DNA of 7,414 nt, taken from IMG/VR virus record IMGVR_UViG_2713896831_000005, positions 1 to 7,414 of that record; one strand, written 5' to 3'. The position numbers and the translations under genes are program-made. Each line of letters opens with the position of its first letter. Positions within the stretch are counted from its first letter, which is position 1. Below are positions 1 to 7,414 of the stretch, in pieces. The DNA comes from a virus (taxonomy: Duplodnaviria; Heunggongvirae; Uroviricota; Caudoviricetes). The notes beneath the pieces were generated by a model. That model searched no databases, was not told the origin of the DNA, and saw only the letters and a list, made by a program, of their open reading frames with translations.

Positions 1-912
1 ATGATAACCAACATCACCACAGCAAAATGGTTTTTTCCAGCCTTTGATGCAGGTTTAATGTTAGTATTTTCATCCGCAGTCACGCTCTATTGCATCAATA
101 GGATCAGCAAGAAATTCCCAGATACTAACGAATTACTACCATTTTTTGGTTTAATCGTTTGGGTCTTGTTGATCGTCGGCTACTATGTCGTTCGCTACAA
201 CAATAACTATCAGACTTCATTATCAATAATCGTAGCCGGTTCGATAGCAGGTATGGGATGGTGGATACAGTTCATCACTTCAGCCGCAAGCGATCGCAGA
301 AAGCATACCCTCAATGTAGTGCTAAGCACCAGAACATGTACTGAATATCAAACAAATCTGCGTAACTTTACTCATCTGTGGAGAGGCAATCGTCACATAC
401 CCAAAGAACTTTGTGAATGGAGAGACGATCCAGATAACCCTAAATTTCAAAACGCAAATGTTCCAAAAGAGGTCGTGGACGGCATAAACGGGATGCTATA
501 TATCCTCAACTTCTTCGAGTTTTTGGCACAAGGTATCAAAGCAAATGACCTTGATGATAAATTACTCCGCGAATGCTTTTGTGGTTTTTTGGAAGGATTA
601 GAAAGACGAGCATATTTCATTTTGTCAGAGGCACAAAAGAAGGATGAGCGTTTTTTTGAAGGTATTGTTTTCTTATGCAAGCGTTGGAACAATGATAAGT
701 CAATCATAGAAAAGCATCGTCATTCAGCCCCTCCGGTTGATATAGGGATAAGCTATCCTCCTAAAGATGAAGTGATGGAAATGTTAGGAATGACCTCACA
801 CGACCATCAGTCTCGCAAACGTAGACGTAGAAAAACAAAAAAAGTTACAACTACTCAACCTGCAGCCAACACGAGCCCTCTGAATTCATCTCAAATAGCC
901 TCATCAGGATAA
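1..912 (+). CDS. Hypothetical membrane-anchored protein (303 aa) with three predicted N-terminal transmembrane helices, a soluble domain of about 200 aa and a poly-basic C-terminal tail; function unknown
   Basis: Uninterrupted 303-codon ORF from the first base of the window to a TAA stop at 910..912. Hydrophobic segments in the translation (FFPAFDAGLMLVFSSAVTLYCI, LLPFFGLIVWVLLIVGYYVV, SLSIIVAGSIAGMGWWIQFITSA) look like three transmembrane helices, and the C-terminus is strongly basic (SRKRRRRKTKKVTT). The region is visibly AT-rich compared with the tail genes. The ATG sits at the window edge, so the true start and its ribosome-binding site cannot be checked. No family was recognised from memory. 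Confidence 0.55.
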   Translation: MITNITTAKWFFPAFDAGLMLVFSSAVTLYCINRISKKFPDTNELLPFFGLIVWVLLIVGYYVVRYNNNYQTSLSIIVAGSIAGMGWWIQFITSAASDRRKHTLNVVLSTRTCTEYQTNLRNFTHLWRGNRHIPKELCEWRDDPDNPKFQNANVPKEVVDGINGMLYILNFFEFLAQGIKANDLDDKLLRECFCGFLEGLERRAYFILSEAQKKDERFFEGIVFLCKRWNNDKSIIEKHRHSAPPVDIGISYPPKDEVMEMLGMTSHDHQSRKRRRRKTKKVTTTQPAANTSPLNSSQIASSG

Positions 913-1535: not shown

Positions 1536-1795
1536 CCATAAAACGCAGCCCCAAACACCTGTGAACAACTACATCTAGTGTTGCAAAATGAAAAACACAA
1601 CTACATGGAACTTTTATCATTAAAAGGTGTCTGATTTTTTACAATCTACTATCAGAAACTAATCTTTAGTAAAAAATGCCATCTGATTACAAGTGACTGA
1701 TGAGTATAAACTCATTAATATGTACTAACGGTTACCAATACGGTAAACTTGTTGCAGTATCTGAAAGAAAACCACACAACAAAAGGGGGCATGTT

Positions 1796-2266
1796 ATGGC
1801 TTATTCTGCAGCAGCAGTTGCTAATGCCTTCATTGAGAAGGCGAACAAAGGTGAACTTTCTGAGCTGACTCCCATGAAGCTCCAGAAGTTGCTTTTCTAT
1901 ACACAATCTTGGCACTTGAAGCTGTGCAATGGCAGACCTCTTTTTGATGATCTCTTTGCACGCTGGAAGTTTGGCCCAGTAATACCGCCGCTCTATCACA
2001 TGCTAAAAAAATACGGGTCTGGTGAAATACAAGAACCCATTAGCATAATTATTGACTCAAATGGAGAGTGGAAGCGTATTACCCCCACGATACAGAAAGA
2101 CGATGCTGACGCCATGAAACTGATTGATAAAATCATAGAGGTCTATGGCGGATATTCAGGAACAGCATTATCAAATATGACTCATGCACCTGGTAGTGCC
2201 TGGAGCCGTGGAGCTGTTGACGGTGGTCCAATCACTCATACGGACATGGCTGAACATATCCATTAA
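1796..2266 (+). CDS. DUF4065 / Panacea-domain protein (PanA/SocA/GepA-like, COG3600), 156 aa; candidate antitoxin or anti-defence component
   Basis: The ORF track gives 1700..2266, but the first in-frame ATG with a ribosome-binding site is at 1796 (AAAAGGGGG at 1781..1789, 6 nt spacer). From that start the protein begins MAYSAAAVANAFIEKA and contains TPMKLQKLLFYTQSWHLKLCNGRPLFDDLFARWKFGPVIPPLYHMLKKYG, matching my recollection of the conserved DUF4065 core (MKLQKLLYFAQ ... PLF ... W..GPV ... Y). The stop overlaps the next start as TAATG. Confidence 0.7.
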   Translation: MAYSAAAVANAFIEKANKGELSELTPMKLQKLLFYTQSWHLKLCNGRPLFDDLFARWKFGPVIPPLYHMLKKYGSGEIQEPISIIIDSNGEWKRITPTIQKDDADAMKLIDKIIEVYGGYSGTALSNMTHAPGSAWSRGAVDGGPITHTDMAEHIH

Positions 2267-2652
2267 TGTCTGAATTTGAACGAATCTCCATCCCCAGCGG
2301 CACTAGATTAGGTGCCGCTCCCATTTCCAGCTCAGAAGATGAGCCTCCTTCATCTGAAGTATCCACTCGCGGTGATAATGTAACCCCGCAAAGCGTTGAA
2401 GATGCGAAATCTTATCGTAAGTTGCGGGAAATTTTCGCCGAAAAGGCTTATAAGGTAGCAAAAAAATCACTTTATGGATGGGCGATTCTACTTTTCGCAC
2501 AAGGATGGTTTTCACTGATTGGTATTCAGATTTTCTCTGACAAAGTCCTCATAGCTATAACAACCGCTGTAACACTTAACGTCTTCGCCGCTTTCCTTGG
2601 TGTAATAAGAGGACTGTTTCCTTCAGGTAAGTCCTCCGGGGAAAAAGAGTAG
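2266..2652 (+). CDS. Small two-transmembrane-helix protein (128 aa) translationally coupled to the DUF4065 gene; candidate membrane-acting toxin or effector
   Basis: The ATG overlaps the upstream stop by one base (TAATG at 2264..2268) and has no separate Shine-Dalgarno, which suggests translational coupling. The N-terminal ~65 residues are hydrophilic and acidic (SSEDEPPSSEVSTRGDNVTPQSVEDAK), followed by two hydrophobic helices (LYGWAILLFAQGWFSLIGIQIF and VLIAITTAVTLNVFAAFLGVIRGLF). The ORF ends 69 nt before a hairpin terminator. Confidence 0.6.
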   Translation: MSEFERISIPSGTRLGAAPISSSEDEPPSSEVSTRGDNVTPQSVEDAKSYRKLREIFAEKAYKVAKKSLYGWAILLFAQGWFSLIGIQIFSDKVLIAITTAVTLNVFAAFLGVIRGLFPSGKSSGEKE

Positions 2653-2720
2653 CTTTTCAACCAATCCGCCGTGACTGGCAATCATTCAATACTCGCACTA
2701 TCAAAAGTTTACTAGCCAAA

Positions 2721-2766
2721 CCGCAGCACGTCCTGCATACGTCGTGTCTGCGGTTTTTCTTTTTTG
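2721..2766 (+). terminator. Rho-independent terminator between the convergent accessory operon and tfa
   Basis: Inverted repeat CCGCAGCACG ... CGTGTCTGCGG (2721..2753, one bulged base) followed by TTTTTCTTTTTT (2754..2765). It lies between the plus-strand ORF ending at 2652 and the minus-strand tfa ending at 2768. The U-tract is on the plus strand, so termination is expected mainly for the plus-strand operon and only weakly for the minus strand. Confidence 0.5.
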
Positions 2767-2767
2767 C

Positions 2768-3352
2768 TTACATTGTGTCTGGTTCTTCCGGCCACTCAAT
2801 ATCAGGTGCAGTTGATGTATCAACACGGTTCAGCAACACCCGATACTTTTTCCAGGCTTCCAGCAATGAGTTTTCTTCCTCCGTTGCGATTTCCAGATCT
2901 ACAGCATCCTGAAGTGGCGCAATATGCTCACTGGCTACCTGCATCAGGTTGTTTTTTGTTTCTTCCGCCTCCCGGATCCGGAACAGTTTTTCTGCTTCCG
3001 TATCCTTCAACCAGGCTGTGCCGTTCCACTTCTGATATTCCCCTTCCGGCGATAACCAGGTAACATTTTCCGGTAACGGACCGAGTTCAGAAATAAATAA
3101 CGCGTCGCCGGAAGCCACGTCATAAACCGTTTTACCCCGATGATCTTCAACGAGATGCCACGATGACTCATCACTGTTGAAAACAGCCACGAAGCCAGCC
3201 GGAATATCTGGCGGTGCAATATCGGTACTGTTTGCAGGCAGACCTGTATGAGGTGGAATATATGCGTCACCGTCACCAATAAATTCATTAGTTCCGGCCA
3301 GCAGATTATAAATTTTTATGGTCCGTGGTTGTTCACTCATTCTGAATGCCAT
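2768..3352 (-). CDS. tfa: Tail fibre assembly protein Tfa (194 aa), lambda Tfa-like chaperone
   Basis: 194-aa minus-strand ORF. The translation ([62 protein letters not shown]...) is near-identical over most of its length to phage lambda Tfa as I recall it. Its start overlaps the stf stop (TAATG on the minus strand at 3350..3354), the expected stf-tfa arrangement. Confidence 0.95.
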
Positions 3353-6300
3353 TATGCAAGCCTCACAATATAGTTAAATGCGATGTTTTTGACGGTGTTT
3401 TCCGCGTTACCAGCAGCGTTAACGGTGATGGTGTGTCCATGTGAACCAATCGCAACGGAGTGCGTATGAGCACCAATACCGACAGTATGCGCGTGTGCAC
3501 CTGCAGATGCTGCTGTGCCGGACAGTGAATGGCTATGATTACCATCTGTACTGGTATTCGCTAACCACCCCGTAGACATACCTACTGAGCCTTGTACACC
3601 CCAGGTATTTTGACCTGAGCTTGTATAACCATATTGATAAGTATCTTTAAAAACACTGGGGTTAAATCGACGGCCATCTCTATGGCTGTGATTACCAGCT
3701 GCATTCGTGCTGCCACTTAAACTATGGGTATGCGCACCAGTGTTATTCGTGGATTTAGTGCCGTAATCAAACGACGATGTGGTTTTCGTCCCCAAATCCG
3801 TACTGGATGCGCTGGCGCTGTGGGTATGCGATTTAATGCCATCCTGTTCCTGAGACAATACGGCACGACCACTGGCGGGCTTGCCCTTAATCGTCCAGCC
3901 ACGCAAATCAGGGATCACGCCTGACGGATAAGCGGCAGCAAGTTTCGGGTAGGCAGATTTGTCAAAAGTCTGCCCCTGCATCAGGGCATAACCAAACGGA
4001 ACGGTATCTGATGGCCACGGGATTGGTGCGCCGACTGGGTAGCTTTCTGGTGGAAGATTTTTCGAGGTATAAACTTCTGCCCAGTCTTCCTCAAAACCAT
4101 AACCGTCTCTTGAAGAACGGTAGAACAGACCACCATTTCTGTAATGCGCCTTCATCTGCAAGGTCCGGCAACTTCCGACTCCGGTATAGAAGTTAACCAG
4201 AATATAGCTGTCGCCAGAGCGGGTGACATTATAAGCGCCTGATTCGGCATTCCAGGGAACGCCACCATCCGCATCGGCATATGTATCCGTTGCCCTTCTG
4301 GCAAAAGCAGCCACATGCGCGGCGGTTAAAGTAATATCTCTGGAACCATCAAACTCAACACCAGAAACCCGTCTTGGCGTTTGCAGCTTTGTTGCTGTTA
4401 ATGCATTACCGTTCAGACTTGCGGACAGTTTGGTTCCAATAACCAGTTCGCCGGTTGCGTTATCAATAGCAAACGGTCTTAATGTATTCCAGCCACCATA
4501 AACATCACCTTGATTGGTAAGCAGCAGGTAAGTTTTAGCGCCATCATTACGCCATAATGCCCCATACTCCCCACCTATCATTCGAATCTGATTACCACCA
4601 CGCGCTACAATTTCGTCTGTGGCAAAAAGTTTTTTGCACGACAAGTTATCGTTAACGATTAACGAATGAGACTCATAAAAACCACGCCCACTCTTAAAAT
4701 CAAGGATAACGTCCGCCGCGATACATTCAGTCGCCGGATTTGTTGCCCCAAACTTATAGGTCGTATCATTAACAACGAGATCAGCACCAGGTGCGGATAT
4801 TGACAGGCCATCTTCGATAAACGCAAAAACAGGGAAAGCAGCGCCATCAACATAGAACACAGAGCGCAAATCATCGCCCTTATTACTCATCATTATTGAG
4901 TGGATGGCTCGTTCATTGTTTTGATATTGCCAGAACATTCCATAAGCATAACGCCCCCTGTCAGTCCAGCCACCAGGCATAACAAATCCGTTAAACTCGC
5001 AGTTATTCATCGGATCGCCTGCGGTTCGCGTTGCCGTGGTGATAATGACCCTTGATGCCAGTTCGCTTACTGAGCCAGCAGAACGCATAACAACAACAGG
5101 GTAATATTTTCCAGATGTTGCACCTGCAGGAGCGTTAACCCGCACATAACGCATACCACGCTTATCAGCAAAGTCTGTTTTACTGACCGCGTTAATGTTG
5201 TTCAGGAAGCGTCCCTTATCGGGTATATCAGCGCCGTTCTGGTCTTTCTGCAGACGTTTCTCTGCATTGTCATAGGCTGATTTTACTGCCTTTGGCGTTG
5301 CCGCCAGCGTTTCAGACGTACTGTTGGTCGCACTGCTGAGCTGTACTATCCCCTTTTTCGTCGTACTTGCATCCTCAAGCGCCACGGCGGATGCAATATC
5401 CTCTGCCCGTTTTGCCGCTGTCTCGGCGCGCGTTGCCGCGGATTCCGCCGTACTTTTGCTCTGTGCTGCCGCCGTCGCACTGCCAGCTGCCTCTGTCGCC
5501 TTCGTGGATGCTGTCGTGGCGCTGCCCTTCGCTGCGGACGCTTGTCTGGTCGCCTCATCTTTTGAAGCAGACGCCGATGATGCCGATGACGCCGCCGAAC
5601 TGGCGGACGATGCGGCAGCCGTTTTTGAGGATTCTGCGCTGGTTTCCGACGCTTTCGCGTTCGTCTCGGATGTCTTCGCTGCGGAAGCAGACCTCGCTGC
5701 TGCGCTGGCCTGTTCAGTGGCTTCGCCAGCCTTCGTTGTGGCTGTTGAAGCAGACGATGCGGCACTTTCTGCCGATTTTCCGGCGGCGGTGGCACTGGCT
5801 GAGGCCTGCCCGGCACTTGTTGACGCGGCACTGGCAGACGACGCAGCCGCTGTTTTTGAGCCTGCCGCAGCCGAGGCGCTCTGTCCCGCTGCCGTTTCAG
5901 AAGACCTGGCGTTTGTCTCAGACGTCTTTGCCGCCTTCGCGGAATTGCCTGCCGCCGTTGCCGAGGAAGCGGCACTACTGGCGCTTGATGATGCGTTCGT
6001 TTCTGATGATTTCGCTGCCTCTTTTGAGGCCGCCGCATCCCGTGCTGAGGTGGCTGCTTCTGACGCCTTCGTGGTCGCGGCGGATGCAGAAGTGGCTGCT
6101 GATTGTTGTGACGCTGCCGCATTCGTTTCTGACGTTTTCGCCGCAGCGGCACTGGTAGCTGCCGCGCTTTTTGAGGACTCTGCAGCAGCAGCACTTTTCG
6201 ATGCTTCACTGGCCTTTGTTGATGCCGTTCCTGCGCTGGAAGATGCTGACTGAGCCGACGACGCGGCCTGTCCGGCTGACGTGCTGGCTGCGCGTGCTGA

Positions 6301-6750
6301 GCCTGCAGCATCAGTCGCATGGGTTGCCGCCTCACGGGCTGATGTGCCGGCATCGCTGGCTGACTTCTTCGCGGCTGCCGTGTTCTGTGCCACCGCGGAC
6401 GCGTTACGCGCCACCTCTTCCACCATCAGTTCAAAACGGCGCAGTGCCTCAGGACGGGCATCATCCTCCGTCATGGCACCGAGAAAATCATTCAGCGTAC
6501 CGGGTCGGGAATCTTCATACACGGTGATGGTCCCGGCATGTGACGGCGGGAATCCCTCCACCAACAGAATAACGCTGTACTGACCGTACTCAACGTCCAT
6601 GCTGTAACGCCCGGCTTCATCCGGATTTTCTGAGGCCAGCGTGTTCACCACCACCGTGGTGCTGTTACGTTTTGCTTTCAGCTGGATTGTGCAGTTCTGT
6701 ACCGGTTTTCCTGTGCCGTCTTTCAGTACACCTGAAATCTTTACTGCCAT
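3352..6750 (-). CDS. stf: Side tail fibre protein Stf (about 1132 aa), full length, with a histidine-rich HxH-repeat C-terminal receptor-binding tip
   Basis: Long minus-strand ORF. The N-terminus ([60 protein letters not shown]...) matches lambda Stf as recalled. The ORF track starts at 6756 (MNM...), but the ATG at 6750 has GGGG 5 nt upstream and gives the canonical MAVKISG start, so 6750 is preferred. The middle is a long Ala/Ser/Thr-rich low-complexity shaft. The C-terminus carries multiple HxH motifs ([45 protein letters not shown]) and ends [11 protein letters not shown], as in lambda/T4 gp37-type fibre tips. Confidence 0.9.
5407..6408 (-). repeat. Internal low-complexity quasi-repeat region of stf (Ala/Ser/Thr-rich shaft with recurring KTSETNA-type units)
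   Basis: Stf residues about 117..450 are almost only A, S, T, K, E, Q and G, with recurring units such as [41 protein letters not shown] and [18 protein letters not shown]. The underlying DNA is GC-rich and stop-poor in every frame, which explains the long overlapping spurious ORFs at 5324..6353. Boundaries are approximate. Confidence 0.5.
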
Positions 6751-6760
6751 ATTCACCCCA

Positions 6761-6814: not shown

Positions 6815-7414
6815 TCAGAATTTATAACCGATACCCACGATGAAACCGTCAGTGCGCCAGTCACCACTGCCGGAGCCTTCATAAGCAATATCAATGGCCA
6901 CGGATTCGGTCGGGTTAAACTGCACGCCAGCCCCCCACGCCAGAGACGTGTTGCTGTGGCGACCGTCATCACTTCCGGTCAGCACATCGTGCTTTTTCCC
7001 CTTGTTGTCAGTTACGCGAAGATAATCCCCGGAGAAAGTCGACACACGGCTGTAAGCTACACCCGCCATCGCATACGCGCTGAACCATTCATTCACGCGC
7101 ACAGACGGCCCCGCCATTACGCTGAACCAGCGGTTACGAACGGAATCTTCATGCCAGCGGGTATCGCTGTAACGGGTCAGCTGGCGATTCTTGTCTCCTG
7201 CATAGCTGAATGACGTCACCAGCCCCAGTGTGTCCGTAAACTCATAACGGTATTTCACGTTAATCCCGTTCAGATCATCGCTGCCGGGGACGTTCGTCGA
7301 GGCATGAAGATACCCCGCGCTCAGCGTGGACTGATGTTCAGACGCCCATGCAGGCGCACCGGATACGGCCAGACAAATGGCTGCGGACAAAATTGCTGCA
7401 CAAACTTTACGCAT
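6815..7414 (-). CDS. lom: Lom outer-membrane protein (Ail/Lom/OmpX family beta-barrel, 199 aa)
   Basis: Minus-strand ORF with a signal-peptide-like N-terminus (MRKVCAAILSAAICLAVSGAPAWA). Conserved blocks match lambda Lom as recalled (GINVKYRYE, VMAGP, SAYAMAGVA, and the C-terminal DIAYEGSGSGDWRTDGFIVGIGYKF ending in aromatic F). The start codon is at the last bases of the window, so the promoter and ribosome-binding site are not visible. Confidence 0.95.
   Translation of the reverse strand: MRKVCAAILSAAICLAVSGAPAWASEHQSTLSAGYLHASTNVPGSDDLNGINVKYRYEFTDTLGLVTSFSYAGDKNRQLTRYSDTRWHEDSVRNRWFSVMAGPSVRVNEWFSAYAMAGVAYSRVSTFSGDYLRVTDNKGKKHDVLTGSDDGRHSNTSLAWGAGVQFNPTESVAIDIAYEGSGSGDWRTDGFIVGIGYKF

Follow-up and report, generated by a model that had tools for sequence, protein, structure and literature searches.

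Gene content and expression signals of the locus

The window, by which we mean the whole 7,414-nt stretch of DNA analysed here, forms the right end of a lambdoid prophage that is inserted beside prfC in E. coli. The region around it was taken from NZ_CP085637, and window positions 1600-2760 are 100% identical to 15 complete genomes. The left part of the window carries a gene for a DUF4760 membrane protein (1-912, + strand) and a DinI gene (1293-1535, + strand), with an S24/UmuD-like pseudogene on the - strand between them. Two overlapping genes follow on the + strand: panA (1796-2266), which encodes a predicted stand-alone Panacea-domain antitoxin of 156 aa, and panT (2266-2652), which encodes a putative membrane toxin of 128 aa assigned to cluster T3. 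The tail-fibre assembly gene tfa (2768-3352) and the side tail fibre gene (3352-6756) lie on the - strand, convergent to this pair, and are followed by the Lom gene (6815-7414, - strand). The initial annotation had described the pair as cargo of a prophage locus convergent to tail-fibre genes, and the gene order of this lambdoid prophage bears out that description.

In sibling prophages at prfC, the slot between DinI and tfa holds two other genes, unrelated to panA-panT. On the right, positions 2672-2760 are tail-fibre backbone, common to ~600 E. coli genomes that lack panA-panT; we therefore place the right-hand edge of the insertion at about 2672, where the backbone of the pair-less genomes resumes. 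Since other genes fill the sibling slot and the common sequence restarts at 2672, the pair has the form of a swappable cassette of ~1 kb. Neither of the two sibling-slot genes matched a Pfam or PADLOC family, so this alternative cargo does not demonstrate that the slot is a defence hotspot. A LexA box-like site with one mismatch (1559-1574) was considered as a sign of LexA control and set aside, as three such sites were found where 2.5 were expected by chance.

The panA start was taken as the ATG at 1796. A longer open reading frame from 1700 (188 aa) was ruled out because conservation among homologues begins at this ATG, and RefSeq/PGAP uses the identical start, giving the product name 'Panacea domain-containing protein'. 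The sequence carries a Shine-Dalgarno element, AAGGGGG (1783-1789, + strand), 6 nt ahead of the ATG. Of six aligned homologous upstream regions, four (the window, L016, L017 and L018) keep GGGGGCAT; the other two, L002 and L019, carry GCGGAGTAG instead. At the downstream gene, the first base of the panT ATG is also the last base of the panA stop codon (CAT TAATG), which confirms the TAATG overlap first noticed between the 156-aa and 128-aa reading frames. No Shine-Dalgarno element was seen ahead of panT in the window sequence; this, together with the one-base overlap, suggests termination-reinitiation as the way in which panT is translated, and synthesis of PanT would then be tied to that of PanA.

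A candidate sigma-70 promoter lies upstream of panA at 1693-1721 (+ strand), with a -35 element GTGACT (1693-1698), a 17-nt spacer and a -10 element TAATAT (1716-1721). The alignment of upstream regions, from which it was read by eye, shows it in the window, L016 and L018; farther upstream these sequences diverge. An automatic promoter scan upstream of panA returned nothing at its threshold; it passed over the candidate because this agrees with the consensus at 8 of 12 positions and 9 of 12 were required. This element, weak by consensus, may drive the cassette. Just past the candidate -10 is an imperfect palindrome, GGTTACC-N5-GGTAAAC (1731-1750, + strand), partly kept in L016 and L018, which is a possible operator. 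Autoregulation by PanA through this palindrome would be speculative, because the Pfam search found no HTH domain in PanA.

A predicted intrinsic terminator occupies 2718-2765 (+ strand), between the convergent panT and tfa genes, and consists of a 13-bp G+C-rich stem followed by UUUUUCUUUUUU. The RNA fold of positions 2650-2770 has a free energy of -27.6 kcal/mol (z=-2.9), and none of 200 shuffled sequences was as stable. By prediction, this strong hairpin and its U-run end the panA-panT operon.

Family assignment of PanA and PanT

Searching PanA against Pfam gave a match to SocA_Panacea (PF13274) with E=2.1e-20 and 74.1 bits (gathering cut-off 25.7), covering residues 29-136 of 156. This HMM result settles the identity of the domain, which had been proposed as DUF4065/Panacea from the sequence motif. 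PanA also matches phrog_1281 (E=6.5e-40) and is 34% identical to the validated antitoxin WP_000287252.1 (E=3e-24). Outside the Stx2a-converting phages that carry the same pair, the closest phage PanA is that of Aggregatibacter phage S1249 (44.5% identity), whose partner is a member of cluster T12 (PMC8832971). A PDB sequence search for solved structures related to PanA gave spurious matches to designed Kelch repeats alone.

The same Panacea/DUF4065 domain is found in SocA of the Caulobacter SocAB system (type VI). PanA matches the NCBIfam model SocA_antitoxin (NF047745) with E=4e-24, but its 85.3 bits lie far under the equivalog cut-off of 190. The partners differ as well: that of PanA is a two-helix membrane protein, and Pfam and NCBIfam searches gave no SocB match to PanT. 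SocA is a ClpXP adaptor and not a direct neutralizer.

PanT is built of an acidic N-terminal part and two C-terminal membrane helices, the architecture that the initial annotation had assigned to it. Its net charge is -5 over residues 1-45 and +5 over residues 46-68, and hydrophobic segments span residues ~69-91 and 93-118, with a turn of four residues between them. An AlphaFold2 model built from an alignment of 43 homologues gives a helical hairpin: residues 1-38 are disordered, a long helix spans 39-84, and after a turn a second helix covers 92-117; for residues 60-110 the pLDDT lies at 81-87. By the positive-inside rule, the basic helix ahead of the membrane together with R115 and K122 after helix 2 suggests that both termini are cytoplasmic. 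In the family alignment the N-terminus is variable, the pre-membrane helix is conserved (R51, L53, R54, K60, Y62) and the second membrane helix is near-invariant (T99, A101, T103, L104, N105, A108, F110, L111, I114, R115, G116, L117, F118, P119).

PanT has many homologues. It matches phrog_33656 (E=4e-43), and a search for homologues found 209 proteins in Enterobacterales, every one annotated 'hypothetical'; its profile matched 434 clusters at E<=1e-3 among 1.84 billion cluster representatives. PanT matched no Pfam, NCBIfam or PADLOC family, and it is because the toxin family has no model in these collections that it appears as a hypothetical protein everywhere. In PADLOC-DB v2, which includes RexAB and the Abi families, PanA, PanT and the DUF4760 neighbour were all without a match at E<=1.

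We next placed PanT among the PanA-associated toxin clusters described by Kurata et al. (2022, PNAS 119:e2102212119; PMC8832971). Two of its homologues, WP_015835255.1 of Photorhabdus asymbiotica (E=3.2e-27) and WP_029687115.1 of Tatumella saanichensis (E=4.1e-28), are entered as putative toxin cluster T3 in Dataset S1 of that study (PMC8832971), and their assemblies and intergenic distances agree with the entries. Cluster T3 includes a validated pair from E. coli STEC O31, PanA WP_000287252.1 and PanT WP_000019185.1; this PanT is toxic, depolarizes and permeabilizes the membrane and causes SYTOX uptake, and its PanA rescues the cells (PMC8832971). In our comparisons the 182-aa allele WP_000019187.1 stood in for WP_000019185.1. 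Exactly the validated PanA, WP_000287252.1, is encoded in phage PhiR47_1 and in 79 E. coli genomes, where PanT allele WP_000019187.1 follows it after 22 nt.

BLASTP found no similarity between the window PanT and the PhiR47_1 PanT (WP_000019187.1). A relationship to cluster T1 was also considered and rejected, since BLASTP against the T1 partner of Salmonella phage Emek was blank and T1 is unrelated. Profile comparison with hhalign, however, aligned the window PanT family with the validated PanT family at 93.4% probability (E=2.5e-7) over 80 columns with ~20% identity, and these columns reach from the pre-membrane helix through the two membrane helices into the C-terminal tail. The HMM of the validated family matched 36 of the 141 representatives that the window PanT family profile had retrieved (best E=1.3e-10), and in the reverse search the window family profile matched 36 members of the validated family. 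Motifs aligned in both families are D-x-x-L-R, an invariant W within membrane helix 1, and G-L-F-[KP]-S followed by a short charged tail. Given the ~20% identity and the blank BLASTP result, we call the homology to the validated toxin remote, and the profile signal could partly reflect the composition of membrane helices. On these findings, PanT represents a subfamily of short proteins within the published T3 PanT superfamily. The initial annotation had found that the membrane partner resembled no toxin family that could be named, and this view is superseded by the T3 homologues and the profile match. Its proposal of a candidate toxin-antitoxin module is supported by the homology; the further suggestion of an undescribed pairing falls away, because homologues of PanT are in the T3 list and the profile and bridging matches lead to the validated family.

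The STEC O31 pair is among the closest known systems. Both pairs place a stand-alone Panacea antitoxin first and a membrane toxin second; both toxins have a charged, disordered N-terminal part, two C-terminal membrane helices and the same terminal motif with its short charged tail, and both fall in T3 through shared homologues. The profile probability between the toxins is 93%. The STEC O31 pair is likewise prophage-borne, at the dusA-proximal end of PhiR47_1. It differs in that its PanA is 34% identical to that of the window, its PanT has 182 aa in place of 128, and its genes are separated by a 22-nt gap instead of overlapping by 1 nt. Toxicity, rescue and depolarization experiments exist for the STEC O31 pair, whereas the window subfamily is known from its sequence; that this subfamily is toxic is accordingly a matter of inference.

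Pairing, mobility and prophage location

We surveyed PanT-homologue loci in IMG/VR to assess how strictly the two genes are kept together. The PanT family matched 58 loci, one of which was left out as spurious (a 24-residue match). In all 57 genuine loci a PanA homologue lies directly upstream on the same strand. The flanks of the 56 loci for which both sides were available fall into 29 upstream clusters and 37 downstream clusters, in 36 combinations, and the same PanA-then-PanT arrangement occurs in Serratia, three different Proteus prophages, Photorhabdus and Stx2a-converting phages. The pair is thus conserved across unrelated contexts in several genera, a point that the initial annotation had raised. 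Among 5,426 complete E. coli genomes, 16 contain the window allele and 15 the allele of the Stx2a phages, and copies with more than 90% identity are found in Klebsiella, Salmonella and Citrobacter. Pairing appears to be obligate, and the pair mobile and located in prophages. Because PanA and PanT each have hundreds of homologues and their adjacency is kept at every one of these loci, panA-panT is not a chance pair of open reading frames.

Pairwise identities of PanA and PanT co-vary across the loci (Pearson r=0.85). This relationship bears on whether PanT is a toxin at all, or instead serves in superinfection exclusion or membrane remodelling (by blocking DNA injection, for example) with PanA as its chaperone, regulator or adaptor. 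Small prophage membrane proteins in such slots are often exclusion factors, which lends this explanation some weight, as does the remoteness of the homology between PanT and the validated toxin. In the Kurata screen, 8 of 25 putative PanTs were non-toxic in E. coli, including two T1 partners (from E. coli and a Salmonella phage; PMC8832971). The T3 cluster, however, groups the PanT subfamily with the validated toxin, and unbroken adjacency with co-variation is what a neutralization interface would yield. The second helix, studded with polar residues (T99, T103, N105, R115), also suits a pore-forming or oligomerizing helix better than a passive anchor. We consider a non-toxic PanT improbable.

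A Pfam survey of adjacent open reading frames identified the recurrent neighbours of the pair as cI-type repressors (Peptidase_S24, HTH_3), CII, DinI, integrases, tail-fibre assembly proteins and N antiterminators. These neighbours speak against PanT as a holin or antiholin in a lysis-timing device regulated by PanA. The small size of PanT, its two membrane helices and its charged C-terminal tail would fit such a device, and PanT has a weak PHROG match to phrog_881 over 17 residues, but at E=0.084 this match is not significant. A holin domain was found in 1 of 53 upstream open reading frames, and neither endolysin nor spanin was present among the best 25 of 33 neighbour families per side; the named contexts show immunity-region, integrase, DinI or tail genes beside the pair, not an endolysin/spanin cassette. 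In the window the pair lies beyond the tail-fibre genes on the opposite strand. A role in lysis timing is therefore very improbable indeed.

Several of the contexts are immunity regions. In Photorhabdus the gene order is cII, cro, cI, panA, panT, N, and the Stx2a phage carries the pair beyond cI and a BsuBI restriction-modification system. The Serratia pair adjoins an integrase, beside a dihydrouridine synthase (Dus) gene. A true toxin-antitoxin pair might serve as an addiction or stabilization module, penalizing loss or excision of the prophage by post-segregational killing through a longer-lived PanT instead of stopping other phages. The classic type II order, with the antitoxin first and translational coupling, is in keeping with this role, and the pair is always on mobile prophages, often at the attachment-site end beside the integrase; stabilization of genomic elements is one of the proposed toxin-antitoxin roles cited by Kurata et al. 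(PMC8832971). Against it, the pair is found repeatedly in immunity slots expressed during lysogeny (downstream of cI, in the cI-N interval, beside restriction-modification genes) that typically house phage exclusion or defence cargo, and an integrated prophage is not segregated away as a plasmid is. We judge addiction unlikely as the explanation, though it deserves more weight than a non-toxic PanT, and addiction and anti-phage roles are not mutually exclusive.

Proposed mechanism and biological role

We favour the reading, to which we give a probability of about 70%, that the pair is a type II PanAT module carried as accessory prophage cargo, in which PanA would neutralize PanT directly. In a lysogen, panA and panT would be co-transcribed, probably from the cassette's own promoter, and the TAATG overlap would couple their translation such that PanT is never made without PanA. 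PanT is expected to form a helical hairpin in the inner membrane, its two ends facing the cytoplasm. Free PanT might then self-associate through its near-invariant second helix and depolarize and permeabilize the membrane, so that transcription, translation and replication would halt together.

Neutralization would take place on the cytoplasmic side, where PanA is proposed to bind the N-terminal region of PanT and the conserved basic helix ahead of the first membrane segment. Ernits et al. (2023) reported that stand-alone Panacea antitoxins neutralize directly, and in the Bartonella choladocola pair the Panacea domain contacts the unstructured N-terminus and a short pre-membrane helix of the toxin, as mutagenesis supports (PMC10440598). 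These Panacea contacts map onto PanT residues 46-68, and for this reason we place the putative PanA contact on that basic helix. By its published description, the Bartonella choladocola/apis PanT(D11):PanA system resembles the window pair in that its toxin is small and depolarizing, has a charged N-terminus and carries its membrane helices at the C-terminal end. Its toxin belongs to a different cluster (T12 rather than T3), although the authors suggest that T3 and T12 may be homologous (PMC8832971).

The most likely biological role of the pair, as we infer it, is abortive infection or superinfection exclusion, which we favour because of the prophage-only distribution and the lysogeny-expressed locations. 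An infecting phage might remove or inactivate PanA, or PanA might sense the phage; in either case the freed PanT would kill the cell before the phage cycle is completed. The anti-phage role raised by the initial annotation is plausible; in the literature that could be searched, we found no PanAT with demonstrated anti-phage activity.

One version of this role takes lambda RexAB as its model. RexAB is made from two prophage genes that are active in the lysogen; one product is cytoplasmic and the other is a membrane effector that brings down the membrane potential, and rexAB lies between cI and N in lambda. In Photorhabdus prophages panA-panT occupies this cI-N slot, as it does at several of the viral homologue loci, and the pair recurs in other lysogeny-expressed cargo slots as well. 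The likeness extends only to position and proposed logic: RexB crosses the membrane with four helices, RexA does not belong to the Panacea proteins, and there is no sequence relationship, PADLOC matching neither PanA nor PanT. By this analogy, the T3 PanAT subfamily might act in RexAB-like abortive infection, with the Panacea protein as phage sensor and PanT as depolarizing effector, a tentative proposal that we hold at rather less than even odds.

The pair does not represent a new kind of system, as its antitoxin domain and its toxin cluster have both been in print since 2022 and the dataset of that study includes close homologues. It is a compact, strictly paired PanAT variant that is native to E. 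coli, found only in prophages and often located in the lysogeny-expressed immunity region. These properties make it a convenient candidate for questions of phage defence and of sensing by Panacea domains. If the RexAB-like reading is true, the pair would give PanAT modules their first demonstrated anti-phage function, and the 'Panacea as sensor' hypothesis (Ernits et al. 2023; PMC10440598) would gain a tractable model in E. coli.

Cargo genes around panAT at the prfC site

SOS-related cargo adjoins panAT, the gene pair encoding a Panacea-domain antitoxin (panA, 1796-2266, plus strand) and a putative membrane toxin (panT, 2266-2652, plus strand). Positions 985-1535 of the window hold a DinI gene (1293-1535) together with a minus-strand pseudogene of the S24/UmuD-like type, and a survey of neighbouring ORFs also placed DinI upstream of panAT in 3 of the contexts it covered. 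A second DinI-like gene lies outside the window, at the prfC junction (L001, 17370-17618). Between dinI and panA, we also considered a LexA-box-like sequence on the plus strand, CTGTGAACAACTACAT (1559-1574), whose CAG half-site carries one mismatch. It was rejected as a real signal, as such matches were not above chance (3 found, 2.5 expected).

The prophage cargo slot holding panAT is shared by a plus-strand gene at the left end of the window (1-912), which encodes a 303-aa protein with a DUF4760 domain (E=2e-15). Membrane helices are located at the N-terminus of this protein, and its C-terminal tail is strongly basic (SRKRRRRKTKK). Searches against PADLOC and NCBIfam models returned zero matches, and the PHROG families that it matched were all without assigned function. 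The DUF4760 gene could be a further accessory or defence gene.

Sibling prophages integrated at the same prfC site (L074, 3040-4931, from NZ_CP058874; and L075) carry two different unknown proteins of 344 and 252 aa, neither of which was matched by Pfam or PADLOC. These replace the DUF4760, dinI and panAT genes; the slot at prfC is a variable cargo site.

Features within the tail-fibre genes

The tail-fibre assembly gene tfa (2768-3352, minus strand) contains a full-length match to the Rfam family IS009 (RF02111; 226 bits; 2811-3009, minus strand). This family is an already described candidate RNA, and it overlaps prophage sequence resembling tfa. Within the side tail-fibre gene (3352-6756, minus strand), long ORFs of 263-335 aa occur antisense to the gene and in its other reading frames (5324-6353, both strands). 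They are confined to the Ala/Ser-rich repetitive N-terminal region of the tail fibre, and look like by-products of this region's composition, not genes.

Phage association of panAT homologues

In Photorhabdus asymbiotica (FM162591; L012, 2954-5040), panA-panT homologues are flanked by genes for a cI-type repressor and an N antiterminator, the same position as that of lambda rexAB. In the Stx2a phage Lyz12581Vzw (L002), the genes preceding panAT are cI and those of a restriction-modification system of the BsuBI type.

The experimentally validated E. coli PanAT is labelled 'NotPhage' in Dataset S1 of Kurata et al. (PMC8832971). In the phage genome PhiR47_1, however, the first two genes encode this very PanA (WP_000287252.1) and an allelic form of the validated PanT; in chromosomes, the two lie at the dusA-proximal end of the PhiR47_1 prophage (loci L014, 1501-2545, and L004, 308-1352). 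The published dataset thus understates the phage association of T3, the PanA-associated putative toxin cluster that includes this PanT.
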